A program made the position numbers and the translations under genes. Positions 2,363 to 63,908 of a stretch of 64,000 nucleotides of DNA are shown one piece after another. Source of the DNA: an uncultured Candidatus Saccharibacteria bacterium (lineage in GTDB: Bacteria; Patescibacteriota; Minisyncoccia; Phycocordibacterales; Phycocordibacteraceae); the NCBI GenBank assembly GCA_964546795.1, contig CAZJKG010000004.1:18994-82993 (forward strand), read 5' to 3'. Numbering within the stretch: the first letter of the stretch is position 1; the number at the start of each line of letters is the position of its first letter. Below the pieces are notes generated by a model. It ran no database searches. It worked only from the letters and a program-made list of their open reading frames with translations, and was not told where the DNA came from.

Positions 2363-3688
2363 TTAGCCCGTCCAACGAGCGGCAAGGATGGAGAAGTCGG
2401 TGAGGTTAACTTTACCGTCGTTATTGAGGTCCGCTTTCGTTCCATTACCAGAAAGTGTTCGTTTATACCAATAGGCCACTATGGAGAAATCAACAAGGTT
2501 GACGCGCGTGTCAGTATTAATATCGCCAATGCTAGTTTTTTTAACCAGTTCCGCTAAGACATTTTTTGTTCCCACTTTGAAATTCACTGCGGGACTGAGT
2601 CCACTTACAAGCTGATTTCCTATAAGTGCTTTTGATTGGGCACTGTGCGAACCATATTCAAGCACCGAACTGTCAAAGTTATACAGATAGACACCGATCT
2701 TATCAGAAATCGTTTTCCCAAAGTATGTTTGGTCCGAATTGACAGAAATGACAATATCGCTTTGCGGGGCCGATTGTCCGAAAAGTGTGATGATATCGCC
2801 TCGATTTACTTCACTCTTGTTCGCCGCAATGGTTGGTGCAATGAAAATACCCGTCACATTCGTTGTAACGCCAGCGGTTAAACTTACGGGAAAAGAGAGG
2901 AGTGCTGAGCGATTGCCGTTATTGTCTTCACTGTACACCGAAAAAATAAAATTTCCCGCGCTGAGATTCGCTACGTTTATCTGAAACGTAGCATCTGGCC
3001 CTGCGATTGATGTGGCTACAACTTGCGCATCCTTGAGAATCGTAACTGTTCTGCTCGGGTATGCTCTGCCGCTAAAGTTTGCGCCGGTGTTTGAGACAGG
3101 AATTATTGCACCGCCTCCTCCTCCGCCACCGCCACCGCCACCTCCTCCGCCACCGCCACTATCAGAAGCTGCGGGGGTTCCCGACGTCTGTGTTGATGTT
3201 GCAATTCTGTTACCAAACGCATCTTTAGGGTTAACGACAAAATAATACGTTGTGCCATTCGTGAGCCCTGTCCTCGTTGAGGAAGTCACATTTCCTAGCG
3301 AAGAATACGTGTAAGGACCGCCAGAGGTTGTGGACTGTCCGACGTCATATCCCGAGACCGTCCAACCTATAAATCCTTCCGAGGCCGTCCAGGTGAGTGC
3401 CACTTGAGCATCGCCGGCCGTCGCGCCAACGGCCGGCGTTGATACGAAAGGATACGCGATAAAACCAGGATTGATACTGAAGGAGGTTGCACTGCTCGTA
3501 CTGTGGGCAAATTCGGAAATACTGCTGAAGAGCGTGAAGCTACTTGAAGTCGCGTATCCGCCTGGATTCATGACCGGGCTAAGCACTTGATAAGTGGTGG
3601 AAGTAAGATCTTCCGCATGAGCGATATCGAATCCGATACTCACGAAGAGCAAGAGAAATGTTCCCCATCGAAAGATTCTTTTACACAT
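2363..3688 (-). CDS. Secreted fibronectin type III / poly-Gly linker / type-I dockerin domain protein
   Basis: Signal peptide. FN3-like segment (ALTWTASEG...GTTYYFVV). 16 consecutive Gly codons. C-terminal tandem Ca-binding dockerin repeats GDINTDTRVNLVDFSIVAYWY and ADLNNDGKVNLTDFSILAARW. Confidence 0.6.
   Translation of the reverse strand: MCKRIFRWGTFLLLFVSIGFDIAHAEDLTSTTYQVLSPVMNPGGYATSSSFTLFSSISEFAHSTSSATSFSINPGFIAYPFVSTPAVGATAGDAQVALTWTASEGFIGWTVSGYDVGQSTTSGGPYTYSSLGNVTSSTRTGLTNGTTYYFVVNPKDAFGNRIATSTQTSGTPAASDSGGGGGGGGGGGGGGGGAIIPVSNTGANFSGRAYPSRTVTILKDAQVVATSIAGPDATFQINVANLSAGNFIFSVYSEDNNGNRSALLSFPVSLTAGVTTNVTGIFIAPTIAANKSEVNRGDIITLFGQSAPQSDIVISVNSDQTYFGKTISDKIGVYLYNFDSSVLEYGSHSAQSKALIGNQLVSGLSPAVNFKVGTKNVLAELVKKTSIGDINTDTRVNLVDFSIVAYWYKRTLSGNGTKADLNNDGKVNLTDFSILAARWTG
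3110..3157 (-). repeat. (GGN)16 simple-sequence tract encoding a poly-glycine linker
   Basis: Plus strand reads ccgcctcctcctccgccaccgccaccgccacctcctccgccaccgcc. Codon phase checked against the ORF end at 2363. Confidence 0.9.
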
Positions 3689-3724
3689 GGAGCAAGCACT
3701 ACATATCGTAGCACGCTACTTCTG

Positions 3725-3809
3725 CGGAGGCGGAGAGATTCGAACTCTCGGAGGGTTGCCCCTCACATGCTTTCCAAGCATGCGCACTAGACCGCTATGC
3801 GACGCCTCC
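3725..3809 (-). tRNA. tRNA-Ser (GGA), class II with long variable arm
   Basis: Hand-folded: acceptor GGAGGCG/CGCCUCC; 3-bp D stem; anticodon stem CAUGC/GCAUG; loop UUGGAAA; variable arm GAGGG-GCAA-CCCUC; T arm GAGAG-UUCGAAU-CUCUC. Confidence 0.8.
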
Positions 3810-3811
3810 TT

Positions 3812-4054
3812 TTATAAACCAAACTCACGTTTGATTTCCTCTCTTTTATACCCTTTTTTGTACTCTCGCTCAAGACGCACAGATTCCATTTCAGATTCAG
3901 TCTCAATAGTTTTCAATAACATAAATGGTGTACGGGATTTTGTGGCAGGCACGGCACCACGATTATGCTCCGCCAAACGTCTTTTGATATCATTGGTCCG
4001 CCCAATATAAAAATGGTTGTCCTTCAAACTCTTCAAGATGTAAACAAAGTACAT
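3812..4054 (-). CDS. GIY-YIG nuclease family protein (small, UPF0213/YhbQ-like)
   Basis: MYFVYILKS...YIGRTNDIKRRLAEHN matches the GIY-YIG core (YIG..RR..EH). One of three paralogs in the window sharing the MYFVYI N-terminus. Confidence 0.8.
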   Translation of the reverse strand: MYFVYILKSLKDNHFYIGRTNDIKRRLAEHNRGAVPATKSRTPFMLLKTIETESEMESVRLEREYKKGYKREEIKREFGL

Positions 4055-4080
4055 ATAAGTTCAAGGTAGTGTACTAGACC

Positions 4081-4116
4081 CCTGCCTGCCGGCAGGCAGG
4101 ACTATGCGACGCCTCC
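4081..4116. repeat. 20-bp perfect palindrome plus 15-bp direct repeat of the tRNA-Ser 5' end
   Basis: 4081-4100 is the palindrome cctgcctgccggcaggcagg. 4102-4116 ctatgcgacgcctcc is identical to 3795-3809 (tRNA-Ser positions 1-15). Together they bracket the GIY-YIG gene. Confidence 0.85.
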
Positions 4117-4243
4117 GTACCCCAAAGGGCCCCGTTAGGGTGTTTCTGTTATAACAGACAAACTTCTTATTTTCCAAGCAAGGCCTTTATTCTTTCTTGA
4201 ATCGGAGGCCGCGCCTACATTCGCGGACTCACTCGGCGCGGCA

Positions 4244-5149
4244 CTAGATGCTTTTGTTTGATCCAAGCAAAGCTTGGATCCTACTTGGAATCGTCGGGTG
4301 TGTGGAGAACATCCCTTCAATCCAACCGCCGATGCTGCTCGATTTTTTCCCAAAAGGATCGCCAATGAAGAGGTGCGCTGTTGCTGTATTGGCACTCTTC
4401 ATTGGCGAAGCATAATTCCCGATTTTTCCGAGCGCGGATGCAAGACCTTCGGGATAGCGAGTAAGCAGAGCGCCTGAAGCATCCGCAAGATATTCACGGC
4501 GGCGCGAGACGGCAAGCTGAATAAGTTTCGCGGCCACAGGCGCGAGCACGATGCCGACGACGGCGAGGACCATTATGAGCGCGTTTCCGTTCTTAGTATC
4601 GCTTCGACCTCCACTATGGAGCGAGATTCGTAAAAAAATATCAGCAACGATAGCAACAAATCCGGCAAGCACTACCGCGATCGTCATGAGAAGCATATCG
4701 CGGTTCTTGATATGCGAAAGTTCATGACCGATGACGCCTTCAAGCTCCGGCCGCGACATCATAGAGAGGAGACCGGTCGTCGCACAGACGACCGCATGTT
4801 GTTCGTCGCGGCCAGTCGCGAATGCGTTCGGCGCCGGATCATCTATCACATAGAGCTTCGGCGTAGGGAGTCCTGCCGTAATCGCGAGGTTCTCCGTAAC
4901 GGTGTAGAAGTCAAAGAATTCTTCTCGGGTCGCCTTTCGTGCATGATTCAAAGAAAGAACGAGTGTGTCCGATGCCCAATACGCATAGAAATTCGTCGCC
5001 ACCGCGATAACGACCGCGATATAGAGAATGGAAGAATCGTTGTAATACCACGAGATCGCATAACCAACAGCGATGACAACTATCAAGAACCCTAGAACGA
5101 GTGCCCAGGTTCGGCGAATATTAGACGTGCGCTGTTCATACAGATTCAT
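4244..5149 (-). CDS. htpX: Zinc metalloprotease HtpX (M48 family)
   Basis: HELSHIKNRD HEXXH motif; N-terminal TM helices; length and architecture typical of HtpX. Confidence 0.9.
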   Translation of the reverse strand: MNLYEQRTSNIRRTWALVLGFLIVVIAVGYAISWYYNDSSILYIAVVIAVATNFYAYWASDTLVLSLNHARKATREEFFDFYTVTENLAITAGLPTPKLYVIDDPAPNAFATGRDEQHAVVCATTGLLSMMSRPELEGVIGHELSHIKNRDMLLMTIAVVLAGFVAIVADIFLRISLHSGGRSDTKNGNALIMVLAVVGIVLAPVAAKLIQLAVSRRREYLADASGALLTRYPEGLASALGKIGNYASPMKSANTATAHLFIGDPFGKKSSSIGGWIEGMFSTHPTIPSRIQALLGSNKSI

Positions 5150-12780: not shown

Positions 12781-13202
12781 GGGGGTGACCGGCTTTGACG
12801 GTCTGTACCTTGAAAGACGTGCGACGCAGTGCACTCCCGTCATCACTTAAAAACGCGGGAAAACAAACTTGCCAAGAACACTCTTGCAAGCGCAATGAAG
12901 TCGCCTTACTTCGGTAAGGTTGGCGACATCGCGTTCGCCTACGCGACGGCTCGCGGCTAACGCCCGACGCCCTCGCCCAGCGCGACGTTCATCCTCTCGA
13001 GTTCCCGCAGTCGGAGGCATGGGCGGAATTATCTGCGTGATCGTCCCTCGCGTTCCCACGCGTTGGGATTAAATAAGGGATCGAGCAGGAATGGTTTCGT
13101 CTGCGTTCCTCGCATCCTGTTTTAGACACTAACGCTGACTATGCGTCGTAGAAGCGCTTTCATAGACGGATTCGGACCGGAGTTCAACTCTCCGCACCTC
13201 CA
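12781..13202 (+). ncRNA. ssrA: tmRNA (ssrA)
   Basis: 5' end GGGGGUGACCGGCUUUGACGG resembles E. coli GGGGCUGAUUCUGGAUUCGACGGG. 3' end UUCGGACCGGAGUUCAACUCUCCGCACCUCCAC resembles UUCGGACGCGGGUUCAACUCCCGCCAGCUCCACCA. Acceptor GGGGGUG/CACCUCC has G3:U70. Lies immediately downstream of smpB. Confidence 0.8.
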
Positions 13203-13282
13203 CAAAATAACGAGTCCTTCCGAGGACGACTATATTTTGTGAGAATCCCGAGCGTACTCGCGAGGGGCTCCACAACAAACAT

Positions 13283-14085: not shown

Positions 14086-14170
14086 GTGCTGGTGGCGGAA
14101 GCGGTATACGCATCTACTTTGTGAGTAGGTATCCTGCGCGGATGTGCGGGTTCAAGTCCCGTCCAGTACA
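14086..14170 (+). tRNA. Atypical class II tRNA: Leu-type body with UGU (Thr) anticodon, G3:U70, A73
   Basis: Acceptor GUGCUGG/CCAGUAC with G3:U70; D arm UGGCGGAAGCGGUAUACGC (compare E. coli tRNA-Leu UGGCGGAAUUGGUAGACGC); anticodon stem UCUAC/GUAGG; loop UUUGUGA; 16-nt variable stem-loop; T arm GCGGG-UUCAAGU-CCCGU; discriminator A. Abuts the candidate rnpB 3' end. Confidence 0.55.
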
Positions 14171-14464
14171 CATCATTACAGCAGAGTAGTGGCGAGTTTC
14201 CTATTAAAATCTACCCTGTAGGGAAAGTATACCCCACCCGTTGAGCGTTATCCACATCCTTACCCGAGGGATTAAGATAGACCTATGAACAACTTCAAGA
14301 ACCTAGCCGACTTTAATAGAGGGGTGTGGACAACGTGTGGTAAGTCGTATACACTATCTGTATATTAATAACTAGGAAGTTGTGAATTTTTGCGGGAGTG
14401 AAAAATTGCAGAAAGGCTCTACTGCGGGGTGTAATTAGGCTAGCGCGAGCTAGAATCGAAAGCA

Positions 14465-28775: not shown

Positions 28776-29012
28776 ATGTATTTTGTATATATAATGGAGT
28801 GCAAGGATGGCTCTCTCTATACCGGCATAACAACGAACATAAAGCGCCGCTTCGCAGAACATAAGAGTGGGATTGGAGGCCATTACACAAGATCGAAAGA
28901 GGTCATGAAGGTCGTATATACGGAACAATATCCTGACAGATCATCGGCCTCAAAAAGAGAATCAGAAATCAAAAGTTGGCGTCGCGAAAAAAAGTTAGGT
29001 TTATTCAAATAA
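28776..29012 (+). CDS. GIY-YIG nuclease family protein (paralog 2)
   Basis: MYFVYIMECKDGSLYTGITTNIKRRFAEHK. Confidence 0.8.
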   Translation: MYFVYIMECKDGSLYTGITTNIKRRFAEHKSGIGGHYTRSKEVMKVVYTEQYPDRSSASKRESEIKSWRREKKLGLFK

Positions 29013-41626: not shown

Positions 41627-41668
41627 ACTATCCACAACTTGTAGCTATAGCTACAAGTTGTGGATAGT
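41627..41668. repeat. Palindromic repeat, copy 2 (42 bp, perfect)
   Basis: actatccacaacttgtagctatagctacaagttgtggatagt, located 21 bp upstream of the PaaX-like start codon. Confidence 0.9.
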
Positions 41669-41909: not shown

Positions 41910-41945
41910 ATCAACAACTTGTAGCTATAGCTACAAGTTGTGGAT
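41910..41945. repeat. Palindromic repeat, copy 3 (36 bp, one mismatch)
   Basis: atcaacaacttgtagctatagctacaagttgtggat. Confidence 0.9.
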
Positions 41946-60227: not shown

Positions 60228-60476
60228 TCAATTGCGGGTTTTGAAGAGTTTCTTTAGCTCACTACGTCCGCTTCCGCTTTTCCACCATAATTCTCGCGCT
60301 TTAGCTTCTTTCATAGTTGGGAACTCTTCGAGATGAAATATTTTAAGCGGACGACGATGCTTCGTCGCTGTGACTTGCCCAGCATTGTGTTGAGTTAGTC
60401 GCCGCTCGACATTATCGGAGAAACCAACGTAGGTACGTTTATCTTGGTCGCTCATCAAAATGTAAACGAAGTACAT
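60228..60476 (-). CDS. GIY-YIG nuclease family protein (paralog 3)
   Basis: MYFVYILMSDQDKRTYVGFSDNVERRLTQHN. Lies about 150 bp downstream of the intron-containing tRNA-fMet. Confidence 0.8.
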   Translation of the reverse strand: MYFVYILMSDQDKRTYVGFSDNVERRLTQHNAGQVTATKHRRPLKIFHLEEFPTMKEAKARELWWKSGSGRSELKKLFKTRN

Positions 60477-60627: not shown

Positions 60628-60950
60628 TTGCGGGGGCCGGAATTGAACCGGCGTCTGGAGGTTATGCTTACCACTACAATTTTCATTGCCCTATGGTTTG
60701 TGGTCTGGACTATGCCTTCACCCCTTATCACTTTCAGTAAGAAAGTGGTAAAGGGTATCTACCGTCTAGTCTCTACACCTTCTCCTTGTCGCTTTCATCA
60801 CTGAAAGTGGTGAAAGTGACAAGGAGCTTGGCTCGGTGTTGCCTTTCGCATTGCGAGAGGGGTTCGCCGAATTTGGCAGATAATCTTATGCGCAATTACT
60901 CACGCACACGCCCGTGAAAGCCTCCCGAGGTACCTCTCCTCTACCCCGCG
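60628..60950 (-). tRNA. Initiator-like tRNA-Met (CAU) interrupted by a 252-nt intron in the anticodon loop
   Basis: Exon 1 is 60919-60950: CGCGGGG-U-A-GAGG-AGAGGUA-CCUC-G-GGAGG-CU. Exon 2 is 60628-60666: CAUAA-CCUCC-AGAC-GCCGG-UUCAAUU-CCGGC-CCCCGCA-A. The joined loop CUCAUAA is the canonical Met loop. C1xA72 is unpaired, a bacterial initiator hallmark, while pairs 2-7 are perfect. Confidence 0.65.
60667..60918 (-). other. Group-I-like intron in tRNA-fMet, inserted between positions 33 and 34
   Basis: 5' exon ends in U33. Intron begins UUCACGGGCG and ends ...GUGGUAAG with a terminal G. Size (252 nt) is typical of bacterial tRNA group I introns. No ORF inside. Fold not verified. Confidence 0.5.
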
Positions 60951-62465: not shown

Positions 62466-63908
62466 TTATCGAGTATTCTCGACGACTTGCCCAATAGTAA
62501 AGAGTACTTCCTCTGCTTGATGTGGCGCGGTGAAATGGATGCCGACTGGCAACTGCTTCCCGTCCCGTTCCACAAAACCCATCGGAATGGAAAGAGCCGG
62601 CATGCCGGTAAGATTTGCAGTAATAGTAAAGATGTCTCCCAAATACATAGAGAGCGGATCGCTCATCTCTCCGAATTTGAACGCCGGGGATGGTGTCGTT
62701 GGAAAAGCGATAACATCGGCTTTCTCAAAAGCCGATATATATTCCTGGCGGAGCACCGAACGCGCCGCGTCCGCCTTGCGGTAATAGGCATCGATATAGC
62801 CGGAAGAGAGCACGAATGTACCGAGCAGGATGCGGCGGCGCGTCTCCTCCCCGAATCCCTCCGTCCGTGAATTGACGTAATCATCAAGCAATGTCTCACC
62901 GTGAGCGGCGAGCCCATAACGCATGCCGTCAAACCGTGCGAGATTGGTCGAGGCCTCGGCAGGCATGATGACATAATATGCCGCGAGCGCGTGGCCACTC
63001 GTCGGGAGCATAACGTCAACGAGCGTATGTCCTGCATGCACCAGCGAATCGAGTGTTGTGTTGAATGCGGCAAGAACATCTTCATCAACGCCTTCATTCA
63101 GGAGATGGCGCGGAACGCCGATGCGCATGTTTTTCGGAATCTTTTGCGCAGGATAGAGGTCGTCGGAAATAGTTGTGGCATCCAGAACGTCTTTCCCGCG
63201 AATTGCTTCGTAGAGAATGTGTGCGTCTTCAATCGTCTTGGTCAAAGGACCGATCTGATCGAGGGATGAACCAAGCGCGATGGCACCCGAGCGCGAGACG
63301 GCACCATAGGTCGGTTTGAATCCTACAAGGCCGGTCAACGCGGAGGGCTGGCGAATGGAACCACCGGTGTCGGTACCGAGTGCGGCGATAGCGAGATGAG
63401 CGGCGACAGCGGCGGCGGAGCCGCCGGAGGAGCCGCCGGGCACGCGAGAGGTATCGTGCGGATTCTTCGCCGGACCGAACGCCGAGTGTTCGGTTGAGGA
63501 ACCCATTGCAAATTCGTCCATATTGGTGCGTCCGAGGAAAAGCGCGCCGACCTCTTTCAATCTTTTCACGACCGTCGCATCATAGGTCGCCCGATAGTTT
63601 TCTAATATTTTTGACCCGGCGCTCGCAATCTTTCCTTCTATCAAAATATTGTCTTTGATCGCGAGCGGAATACCGCAGAGGAACGACATATCGTTTGCAT
63701 CAATGCGCTTCTGCGCGGCGGCGATCGCAGCATCGTCAGCATCAAAAATTTCGAGGAAGGCGTTCAATTCCGGATTCTTCGCGTGCGCCGCAGCGGCGCA
63801 CGCGTCCCAGAGTTCACGCACCGTAACGCGCGCCTGCCTGCCGGCAGGCAGGCGAAGTGCGCGCGCTGCCTCAGTTATCGTCATTTCATTTGGTTTTTTC
63901 ATAGGCAA
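62466..63908 (-). CDS. gatA: Glutamyl-tRNA(Gln) amidotransferase subunit A
   Basis: Amidase signature GGSSGGSAAAVAAHLAIAALGTDTGGSIRQPSALTGLVGFKPTYG with the Ser-cisSer-Lys triad context. Confidence 0.9.
   Translation of the reverse strand: MPMKKPNEMTITEAARALRLPAGRQARVTVRELWDACAAAAHAKNPELNAFLEIFDADDAAIAAAQKRIDANDMSFLCGIPLAIKDNILIEGKIASAGSKILENYRATYDATVVKRLKEVGALFLGRTNMDEFAMGSSTEHSAFGPAKNPHDTSRVPGGSSGGSAAAVAAHLAIAALGTDTGGSIRQPSALTGLVGFKPTYGAVSRSGAIALGSSLDQIGPLTKTIEDAHILYEAIRGKDVLDATTISDDLYPAQKIPKNMRIGVPRHLLNEGVDEDVLAAFNTTLDSLVHAGHTLVDVMLPTSGHALAAYYVIMPAEASTNLARFDGMRYGLAAHGETLLDDYVNSRTEGFGEETRRRILLGTFVLSSGYIDAYYRKADAARSVLRQEYISAFEKADVIAFPTTPSPAFKFGEMSDPLSMYLGDIFTITANLTGMPALSIPMGFVERDGKQLPVGIHFTAPHQAEEVLFTIGQVVENTR

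Follow-up and report, generated by a model that had tools for sequence, protein, structure and literature searches.

Phage T4 carries within its tRNA cluster a free-standing GIY-YIG endonuclease, SegB, which recognises a tRNA T-arm motif and spreads together with the neighbouring tRNA genes (PMC2330249). In Caldiarchaeum, a 5' fragment of tRNA-Thr is found upstream of a recombinase-bearing insert (PMC3293823), and in Patescibacteria a survey of tRNA introns describes HNH genes within tRNA-Asn introns and makes no mention of a tRNA-nested GIY-YIG arrangement (PMC13011429). The minimal form of the GIY-YIG fold is represented by prokaryotic stand-alone Slx1-like proteins, for which no function has been established (Dunin-Horkawicz et al., PMC1564403). 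Here we analyse a 64,000-nt stretch of DNA from an uncultured Candidatus Saccharibacteria bacterium (GenBank assembly GCA_964546795.1, contig CAZJKG010000004.1, positions 18,994 to 82,993), referred to below as the window, in which a GIY-YIG minigene stands between an intact tRNA-Ser(GGA) gene and a displaced, palindrome-interrupted copy of the 5' part of that gene. An ENA metagenome assembly contains the same contig. The original prediction for this locus, that a mobile GIY-YIG cassette had integrated there and made up for the interrupted tRNA with a copy that it carried, was supported by every check that it named, and we consider it probable that a small selfish cassette of the free-standing homing-endonuclease type colonised tRNA-Ser(GGA) and supplied the replacement tRNA.

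The functional copy of the tRNA gene lies downstream of the cassette on the minus strand (3724..3809); it is complete and uninterrupted (ARAGORN; Rfam RF00005, 55.9 bits), with its 5' end at 3809 and its 3' boundary placed at 3724/3725 by both ARAGORN and Rfam. Ahead of it on the same strand is the GIY-YIG minigene (3812..4054), an open reading frame (ORF) of 80 amino acids (aa) that comprises the nuclease domain only (Pfam PF01541, E=1.2e-14). The gene had been described as starting 2 nt from the tRNA 5' end; the distance was right, but it is the stop codon TAA (3814-3812) that stands 2 nt ahead of tRNA position 1, and the ATG is at 4054. A 7-nt leader, AACTTAT (4055..4061, minus strand), separates the ATG from the end of the tRNA homology and, as comparison with the related locus L122 shows, forms the left edge of a block that is nearly identical in the two sequences. 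Beyond the leader lies the displaced fragment, which on the minus strand reads GGAGGCGTCGCATAG-T-palindrome-GGTCTAGTACACTACCTTG, that is, tRNA positions 1-34 with a palindrome in the D loop. Its left part (4101..4116, minus strand) matches the functional copy exactly over positions 1-15 and then has T where the tRNA has C16; the insert is the perfect 20-bp palindrome CCTGCCTGCCGGCAGGCAGG, hereafter PAL (4081..4100, no strand assigned; 0 expected); and the right part (4062..4080, minus strand), delimited by sequence reading and repeat-family analysis, holds positions 17-34, consisting of GGTCTAGT (equal to tRNA 17-24) and ACACTACCTTG and ending at G34. The anticodon stem of the fragment has the allele CTACC, against CATGC in the resident tRNA, and matches the tRNA of another locus, L008; the break at G34 is common to the fragments of the window, L008, L086 and L108.

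The coordinates and facts first given for the tRNA-Ser, the GIY-YIG ORF, the 15-mer repeat and the palindrome proved correct by ARAGORN, Rfam, Pfam and a repeat search, and several of their interpretations needed refinement. The duplication of 15 bp is real, with 15/15 positions identical, but the repeat is longer and runs to G34 with a different anticodon-stem allele; the palindrome is indeed a perfect one of 20 bp, but it sits inside the D loop of the displaced fragment rather than beside the duplication; and integration into the tRNA gene is supported, but with the break in the anticodon loop after G34 and not at position 15. The 15-mer CTATGCGACGCCTCC is no common genomic word, having exactly two copies in 64 kb (3795-3809 and 4102-4116); there are still two when 2 mismatches are allowed, where shuffled sequences lead one to expect 0.15 and 1/100 shuffles reached two. 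A direct repeat of a tRNA segment is thus present at both ends, with 15/15 identical positions plus 17-24; it is the 5' part that is repeated, and one copy is interrupted. Along the minus strand the order is fragment 1-34 with PAL, 7-nt leader, ORF, 2 nt, and full tRNA-Ser. Nothing but the 80-aa ORF is encoded in the 307 bp that separate the repeat copies, the neighbours being htpX and a gene for a 441-aa repeat protein, and no tyrosine or serine recombinase or other integrase was found in or near the window cassette. Upstream of the fragment, the sequence TCTGTTATAACAGA (4145..4158, minus strand) includes a -10-like TATAAC motif, recognised by alignment with the locus L071 described below, and next comes the htpX-like gene of an M48 peptidase (4244..5149, minus strand), a host gene that serves as a marker of synteny and divergence and is syntenic in L071, L122, L250 and L261. 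We presume, from the alignment with L071 that underlies the assignment, that the TATAAC motif is the native tRNA promoter now driving fragment, ORF and tRNA; a scan of the minus strand with consensus promoter and terminator models gave nothing usable and did not call the motif. A search of this locus (E<=10) and of eight related loci against Rfam returned no family for the fragment, the hairpins or an element of ~150 nt found 3' of tRNA-Ser.

An unoccupied version of the site exists. Scanning of species-representative genomes for the tRNA 5' sequence yielded 119 loci, mostly from Paceibacterota/Parcubacteria and other Patescibacteria metagenome-assembled genomes; a GIY-YIG gene is nearby in three of them and in none of the other 116. 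The empty orthologous site sought at the outset is L071, where the 3' end of htpX is followed by a 37-nt spacer and tRNA-Ser(GGA), with neither ORF nor fragment. Its spacer carries the TATAAC motif (CTATAACAGA) 12 nt upstream of the tRNA, aligned with that of the window, so that the displaced fragment in the window takes the place held by the tRNA in L071, and the ORF and the working tRNA follow further downstream. Patchy presence at one conserved site that also has empty alleles (L071; 3/119) is the distribution of a free-standing homing endonuclease gene.

Decay products of the cassette are seen in the same set. Duplication without a GIY-YIG gene, named in the original prediction as an observation that would speak against it, does occur, in L008, L016, L032, L086, L101 and L108, of which L108 keeps PAL. 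We read these ORF-less fragments as scars of former cassettes, and they do not overturn the prediction because a fragment is present in 35/46 pairs of GIY-YIG gene and tRNA as compared with ~6% of the GIY-less tRNA-Ser loci. In three of them (L008, 4855-5150; L016, minus strand, 1462-1720; L086, 1344-1600) a complete tRNA-Ser lies between the 5' and the matching 3' portions of an older tRNA-Ser; the split follows G34 in two of them (L008, L086) and falls within the D loop of the third (L016), and the insert has short inverted ends, TTCCCG...CGGGA. Such nested genes are the remains expected of an inserting unit that includes a complete tRNA. The repeats in the tRNA-Ser set have a strict polarity: all 10 repeats of a tRNA 5' end lie upstream, and all 13 repeats of a 3' end lie downstream. 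Nine loci (L004, L017, L024, L048, L066, L071, L084, L085 and L121) also share a conserved element of ~135-180 nt 3' of tRNA-Ser. It opens with the inverse complement of the T arm of its own tRNA (e.g. GGAGAGATTCGAAC), has GC-rich hairpins, closes with a direct copy of the tRNA 3' end (...GTACTCnnGnTCTCTCCGCCTCCGC) and co-varies with the local T arm. It has no Rfam match and may be the ORF-less 3' scar of a mirror-form cassette or else a structured RNA.

The arrangement is by no means restricted to tRNA-Ser(GGA). Homologues of the ORF were collected from 80 fetched metagenome loci, which together with the window and two genome loci gave 83 intact ORFs. Of these, 46 end between -44 and +79 nt from the 5' end of a tRNA on the same strand, ~40 of them no more than 30 nt away; in many cases the reading frame continues into the tRNA gene and terminates at a stop codon there. 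No fewer than 13 amino-acid specificities are represented: Ser (GGA/GCT/TGA/CGA), Gln, Cys, Gly, Leu, Pro, Ala, Arg, Ile, Val, Lys, Asn and Thr; a tRNA-Tyr with an upstream fragment occurs too. Directly upstream of the ATG, the tRNA 5' end is repeated in 35/46 pairs. When the first 12 nt of each tRNA in the 80 metagenome loci were searched for (<=1 mismatch), a repeat on the same strand 85-594 nt upstream was found for 40/87 tRNAs, as compared with 0-1 hits in six control arrangements. The repeat starts at tRNA position +1 in 28/34 loci, without homology further upstream (three exceptions are tandem cassettes), and TATAAT-like boxes precede the fragments in many loci. The fragments extend to about positions 18-46, with the ATG 0-18 nt past the end of homology, and in nearly all of them one to three perfect, GC-rich hairpins break the sequence, for the most part in the D arm and occasionally in the anticodon loop; hairpins and fragment ends were mapped automatically and their positions are approximate, some alignments being extended too far by cheap gaps. 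The repeats enclose a segment of ~270-480 bp in 35 independent loci, with the GIY-YIG ORF as its only content. A mirror form, in which tRNA and ORF are followed by a 3' tRNA fragment with hairpins in the T loop or anticodon loop, is represented by L134, L141, L149, L185 and L193/L194.

Occupancy also varies in both directions, since different GIY clades are found at the same tRNA-Ser(GGA) gene (window, L070, L073), and members of a single clade are found at several types of tRNA. Frameshifted GIY-YIG ORFs were found in L073 and L092. Two simpler descriptions of the insertion were given up in the course of the analysis: a target-site duplication of fixed length was rejected, as the fragment ends vary from about position 18 to 46, and the rule that all breaks fall in loops was dropped, the breakpoints being mostly in the D arm and anticodon loop and not confined to loops. 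The window itself contains two more GIY-YIG minigenes found by tblastn, both without PAL: one, 41% identical (60243..60476, minus strand), lies ~150 nt 3' of an intron-containing tRNA-fMet, and the other (28776..29012, plus strand) has no adjacent tRNA. The former is preceded by hairpins, among them an inverted copy of the tRNA 3' end, and the context in L154 is the same.

Movement between lineages is evident from the comparison of the window with L122. The two ORFs share 97.1% nucleotide identity, with 3 synonymous and 4 non-synonymous codon differences and third positions 96% identical, whereas the htpX genes, syntenic in both, share only 64% at the nucleotide and 66% at the amino-acid level, with third positions at 41% (saturated); the sequences upstream of the fragment and downstream of the tRNA cannot be aligned. 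Such a difference between the ORF (97%) and htpX (64%) argues for recent horizontal transfer. When two further syntenic genomes are added, the trees are in conflict as well, L122 being closest to L250 by htpX (93% aa) and to the window by the ORF. An element younger than its genomic background is what is known of homing genes. The tRNA-Ser of the window is 95% identical to the tRNAs of both L122 and the empty site L071, and the whole tRNA allele, beyond its first 15 nt, likewise pairs L122 with the window (95%) and not with L250 (79.5%; the anticodon stem and variable arm differ). The ORF has thus been exchanged between lineages, in the window/L122 pair together with the tRNA.

The product of the minigene is a predicted nuclease. 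It scores 54.8 bits against a cut-off of 22.6 with PF01541, covering profile positions 1-74 of 78, and the residues expected for catalysis (the Tyr of GIY, the Tyr-x-Gly of YIG, an Arg and a metal-binding Glu) are conserved: Y5, Y16, G18, R25/R26, H30 and E62 are invariant in four aligned copies that share 34-41% identity. The nearest structures in PDB are UPF0213 proteins, 1zg2 (BH0048, E=1.9e-7) and 1ywl (EF2693, E=7.4e-6), aligned over residues 2-72. With its single domain, its 80 residues in a family of ~80-110 aa, and UPF0213 as the closest structures, the protein is of the UPF0213/Slx1-like type; BH0048 and EF2693 are taken here as members of the prokaryotic stand-alone Slx1-like lineage (PMC1564403). 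No NCBIfam model reached its own cut-off. The group I intron endonuclease model TIGR01453 matches residues 2-32 only (22.9 bits against a cut-off of 56), and the intron-endonuclease and UvrC models in general give weak matches below cut-off. The best PADLOC hit (E=8e-4) has no matched stretch, and the PHROGs matches, to generic endonuclease and homing-endonuclease families, are weak.

The palindrome turned out to be not a feature of the tRNA-Ser site alone, an identical 20-mer being located in the window at 63833..63852 (no strand assigned) inside gatA (62466-63908, minus strand). There it forms an in-frame insertion of ~18 nt that adds about six residues, LPAGRQ, to the N-terminal region of GatA and is absent from at least 12 orthologues at 70-81% identity; an alignment of the GatA N-terminus with PDB entries was uninformative on the palindrome. 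A search with <=2 mismatches over the window and 1.16 Mb of fetched patescibacterial loci found 15 copies, of which 12 are in tRNA 5' fragments beside a GIY-YIG gene, two in ORF-less tRNA-Ser fragments (L108, and L101, where it is apparently a 3' fragment) and one in gatA. The search for GIY-YIG copies next to tRNAs with the same palindrome, proposed at the outset, was successful: such loci are L122, L124, L125, L161, L164, L180, L184, L233 and L249-L259, further PAL copies being present in the closest relatives. The same 20-mer has the same role in at least 13 other cassettes. Its insertion is clean and without target duplication, the site being 16|17 in Ser cassettes, 14|15 or 23|24 in those of Leu, and 20|21 in L108; to its left and right the sequence is that of the local tRNA allele, down to the lineage-specific G5A in L259. 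No hairpin was found inside any called functional tRNA of the patescibacterial loci.

On viral contigs (IMG/VR loci L202-L248), PAL occurs at 42 sites in 35 stretches of 38-68% GC, with four copies in L222 and three in L208; only in L233 is a GIY-YIG gene nearby. Long spurious ORFs in the high-GC contigs mask whether PAL falls within genes there. A tRNA-Met gene has the L226 copy (2284-2303) in its variable loop, and the left flank is nearly identical in L203. At 38 of the 42 viral-contig sites, as at the tRNA-fragment sites, there is no flanking duplication, and the palindrome mostly stops at 20 bp. Freeing of the central four bases adds only 14 sites, mostly one-base variants, from which we conclude that PAL is a discrete entity with sharp ends. 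An insertion sequence or miniature inverted-repeat transposable element was considered and rejected for PAL: such elements have terminal inverted repeats and a target-site duplication of fixed length, whereas the whole unit here is the 20-bp palindrome and a flanking duplication is mostly absent. Its origin from a sequencing adapter was likewise ruled out by its restriction to non-functional tRNA fragments, by the in-frame copy in gatA and by variants that preserve the hairpin, which are compensatory in L135, affect the loop or a wobble pair in L133 and L261, and are less clean in L123.

Other cassettes have hairpins of the families CCCCGC...GCGGGG, TCCCGC...GCGGGA and TCCCGAT...ATCGGGA, and in a rough and shallow tree, which may partly reflect host phylogeny, these families go more closely with the GIY clade than with the type of tRNA. 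Among related cassettes the hairpin-bearing fragment is more conserved than the ORF (0.85-0.97 vs 0.69-0.82). A census of mismatches in the hairpin stems, made as a gauge of RNA-level against DNA-level constraint, counted only six G.T and two A.C. Inside a tRNA-Gln fragment, L131 has three tandem copies of a 41-nt GC-rich hairpin (~606-741), and L122 has an extra half-palindrome, CCTGCCTGCC, beside PAL (407-436); hairpin units can therefore amplify locally. As candidate roles for PAL we consider breaking of the direct repeat, so that recombination does not loop the cassette out, prevention of mispairing between the leader and the tRNA, shielding of the tRNA-distal end of the ORF transcript, and provision of a nuclease site.

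Taken together with what is seen in the relatives, the anatomy of the locus suggests the following course of events. The original tRNA-Ser gene would have been a neighbour of htpX, directly behind its own promoter. A block consisting of a short leader, the 80-aa Slx1/UPF0213-like GIY-YIG ORF and a replacement tRNA-Ser would then have been joined to the old gene after G34, leaving the old 5' half (1-34) stranded upstream as a dead fragment. As the new tRNA is complete, it would keep the cell viable and make splicing unnecessary. The tRNA promoter would presumably transcribe the fragment, the ORF and the tRNA as a single RNA, from which RNase P would free the tRNA just past the stop codon. Conserved tRNA sequence on both sides of the block (to the left in the fragment, to the right in the tRNA) would provide a portable homology, by which the block may recombine into the same tRNA gene of other genomes, probably following a nuclease cut there; we infer both an initiating cut by the GIY-YIG protein and its position, and it would be this protein itself that does the targeting. 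PAL would be a copy of a dispersed 20-bp insertion that landed in the dead fragment, and PAL or an equivalent GC-rich hairpin would break the direct repeat in almost every cassette.

Several observations weigh against this proposal. The replacement tRNA is an intact potential target, and the usual immunity of homing elements, by which insertion destroys the site, is not evident. To our knowledge, classical homing creates no duplications. DNA-binding modules give I-TevI and the Seg enzymes long recognition sites, and the 80-aa protein is a catalytic core without a DNA-binding extension or the recognition domain of a homing enzyme; a bare catalytic domain leaves sequence-specific cutting of many different tRNA genes unexplained. 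The fragments of the window and L122 differ at 5/15 sites in positions 17-31 despite their near-identical ORFs, and those of L250 and L259 match the resident tRNA allele on both sides of PAL, which simple transfer of one block does not predict. Between L122 and L250 the ORF looks vertically inherited and the tRNA allele is different (79.5%), hence the ORF and the tRNA allele are not always transferred together. Finally, the three GIY-YIG copies of the window share only 34-41% identity, giving no sign of recent jumping within the genome, and the copy at 28776-29012 adjoins no tRNA.

A bolder version of the proposal, which we put forward only tentatively and regard as rather unlikely, would recognise a new class of mobile elements in Patescibacteria, in which a minimal structure-specific Slx1-like GIY-YIG nuclease acts together with short perfect palindromes, breaking cloverleaf-forming tRNA-gene DNA at loops and installing itself and a replacement tRNA. 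The palindrome (PAL and the CCCCGC and TCCCG families) would then be a part of the insertion, as a recognition, priming or capping site, and would also insert alone, as in gatA and phage tRNAs; if this is true, tRNA alleles in Patescibacteria would be routinely replaced horizontally by a nuclease-palindrome system. The hairpins might even be the primary mobile agents and the GIY-YIG protein their enzyme, in the manner of repetitive extragenic palindromes and their associated tyrosine transposases (REP/RAYT), with structure-specific cutting of hairpin or cloverleaf DNA and with palindromes, tRNA duplications and ORF position as by-products. We find this partnership improbable. It agrees with the closeness of the protein to UPF0213 structures, equated with the minimal prokaryotic Slx1-like lineage (PMC1564403), with the rough tree in which hairpin type follows the GIY clade, and with the better conservation of the hairpin-bearing fragment than of the ORF; the same 20-mer moreover stands cleanly, with no target duplication, at various D-arm positions (14|15, 16|17, 20|21 and 23|24) of Ser, Leu and Asn fragments, and PAL inserts elsewhere too, in gatA. 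However, among the 42 viral-contig sites of PAL a GIY-YIG gene is near one (L233) and a tRNA is at the site in L226 only, with a tRNA-like flank in L203; PAL accompanies just one of the three GIY copies of the window; no pair of hairpins brackets the ORF, unlike the hairpin-forming REP doublets (REPINs); and the clade tree, shallow as it is, may be in part that of the hosts.

Explanations without a mobile cassette, or with a different one, fare no better against the same data. If the nuclease gene were a vertically inherited, domesticated member of an operon, co-transcribed with the tRNA, and the fragment a relic of local tandem tRNA duplication, nothing would be mobile, and neither the syntenic empty site L071, nor the absence of GIY-YIG genes from 116/119 tRNA-Ser loci, nor the far younger age of the window and L122 ORFs relative to their htpX genes would be expected; nor would the same architecture at at least 13 unrelated tRNA types, each with its own matching fragment, or the pseudogenes and scars. 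We therefore judge this very unlikely, even though the closest relatives, at 75-95% aa identity, are found in the same LemA/htpX/GIY/tRNA-Ser neighbourhood where the upstream flank is present (L122, L250-L258, L261-L264, L266), ORF and htpX diverge in parallel between L122 and L250, and most ORFs are intact. Direct repeats of a partial tRNA around foreign DNA are the classic att footprint, and an archaeal tRNA 5' fragment upstream of a recombinase-bearing insert has been described (PMC3293823), both of which would suit a decayed remnant of a larger integrase-borne island or prophage in the tRNA gene, with the GIY-YIG gene as leftover cargo; but decay would not converge each time on the same minimal unit of ~270-480 bp with the GIY-YIG ORF only, as seen in 35 independent loci, no integrase was found in or near the window cassette, and it is the tRNA 5' end that is duplicated, whereas integrases usually duplicate the 3' end, all of which makes such an origin highly improbable. 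Hardly credible, in our opinion, is a remnant of a group I intron with a homing-endonuclease ORF in the anticodon loop of tRNA-Ser: no RF00028 ribozyme core was detected at 3600-4300 even at E<=10, the downstream tRNA (3724-3809) is complete and continuous, with no need of splicing, P1 requires a U where the 5' exon would have G as its last base, and the endonucleases reported from Patescibacteria tRNA introns are HNH and not GIY-YIG (PMC13011429). What would recommend it is that the break is in the anticodon loop, the usual site of bacterial tRNA introns, that group I introns are plentiful in the tRNA genes of Patescibacteria (PMC13011429), and that the window holds one of them, in tRNA-fMet.

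That intron and a few other features of the window deserve mention. An initiator-type tRNA(CAT) at 60628-60950 (minus strand) has a group I intron of ~252 nt (~60667-60918) between positions 33 and 34, with exons CGCGGGGTAGAGGAGAGGTACCTCGGGAGGCT and CATAACCTCCAGACGCCGGTTCAATTCCGGCCCCCGCAA; it was missed by ARAGORN and scored 47.5 bits with Rfam RF00028, just below the cut-off of 50. The 33/34 intron position is already known for tRNA-fMet (PMC13011429). At 14086-14171 (plus strand) there is an 86-nt tRNA called as Thr(TGT), whose long variable arm gives it a class II shape that is uncommon in tRNA-Thr, and at 12781-13205 (plus strand) a transfer-messenger RNA gene (Rfam RF00023, 91.7 bits), which is absent from the ARAGORN calls. 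Two further perfect palindromes, of 42 nt (41627-41668) and 28 nt (41914-41941), have a common core, ACAACTTGTAGCTATAGCTACAAGTTGT, and the longer is flanked by the DnaA-box-like sequence CTATCCACA; the pair may mark an origin or operator region.

The possible mobility of GIY-YIG cassettes at tRNA genes is of interest in several respects. Through splicing, introns and inteins make it possible for selfish nuclease genes to reside in essential genes; provision of a spare gene copy would be a third way. The cassette would give a concrete genomic role to the very common, function-less UPF0213/minimal GIY-YIG proteins, and it implies that tRNA genes of Patescibacteria, which are commonly taken for stable vertical markers, pass from one lineage to another with the cassette. 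It also explains tRNA pseudo-fragments that are able to confuse tRNA annotation in these bacteria. PAL is a puzzle in itself, being identical across unrelated bacteria and phage contigs and inserted in frame in a protein gene, and an 80-aa nuclease with specificity for tRNA genes or hairpins could have practical interest. Full-text literature searches, the palindrome string included, found no account of tRNA-nested GIY-YIG minigenes with hairpin-interrupted tRNA fragments.

The nearest precedents are T4 SegB (PMC2330249) and the archaeal tRNA-Thr fragment (PMC3293823). Of the known systems, T4 SegB resembles the window cassette in being an intron-free GIY-YIG gene among tRNA genes, in the ORF being younger than the host background, and in the travel of a tRNA allele with the ORF, as in the window/L122 pair. 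The Seg enzymes, however, have ~200 aa or more and DNA-binding domains, whereas the window protein has 80 aa and the catalytic domain only, and the hosts of Seg and Mob genes are T-even phages, while those of the window cassette are cellular Patescibacteria. We know of no SegB locus in which part of the target tRNA is duplicated in a displaced form broken by a hairpin. The intron homing endonucleases (I-TevI and the HNH enzymes of Patescibacteria tRNA-Asn introns) share with it the position in a loop of an essential conserved gene and the cycle of gain, decay and loss; the cassette, in contrast, rescues the host gene by duplicating part or all of it and not by splicing, and no ribozyme was detected. 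With the integrative elements that target tRNA genes, the Caldiarchaeum tRNA-Thr case among them, it has in common a direct repeat of partial tRNA bracketing foreign DNA and a gene restored by the element's own copy, but it is ~0.3 kb and not kilobases in length, has no integrase or recombinase, belongs to a group that mostly repeats the 5' part, and has one copy systematically broken by GC-rich palindromes. In size and single-domain build the protein is like its closest solved relatives in UPF0213 (BH0048, 1zg2; EF2693, 1ywl; E. coli YhbQ type), a family for which the literature searched gives no tRNA-nested, repeat-flanked, horizontally moving context.

Dispersed short GC-rich palindromes associated with a small nuclease gene are also reminiscent of REP/RAYT and of Rickettsia palindromic elements. 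The latter insert in frame into protein genes, as PAL does in gatA, and also into RNA genes. Unlike these elements, PAL has only 20 bp, is perfectly symmetric and is identical across very different genomes and phage contigs, and its candidate enzyme would be a GIY-YIG protein and not an HUH transposase. Overall, the window cassette seems closest to the free-standing homing-type nuclease genes, and there is a real chance that the combination of nuclease and palindrome is more distinct than such a gene.

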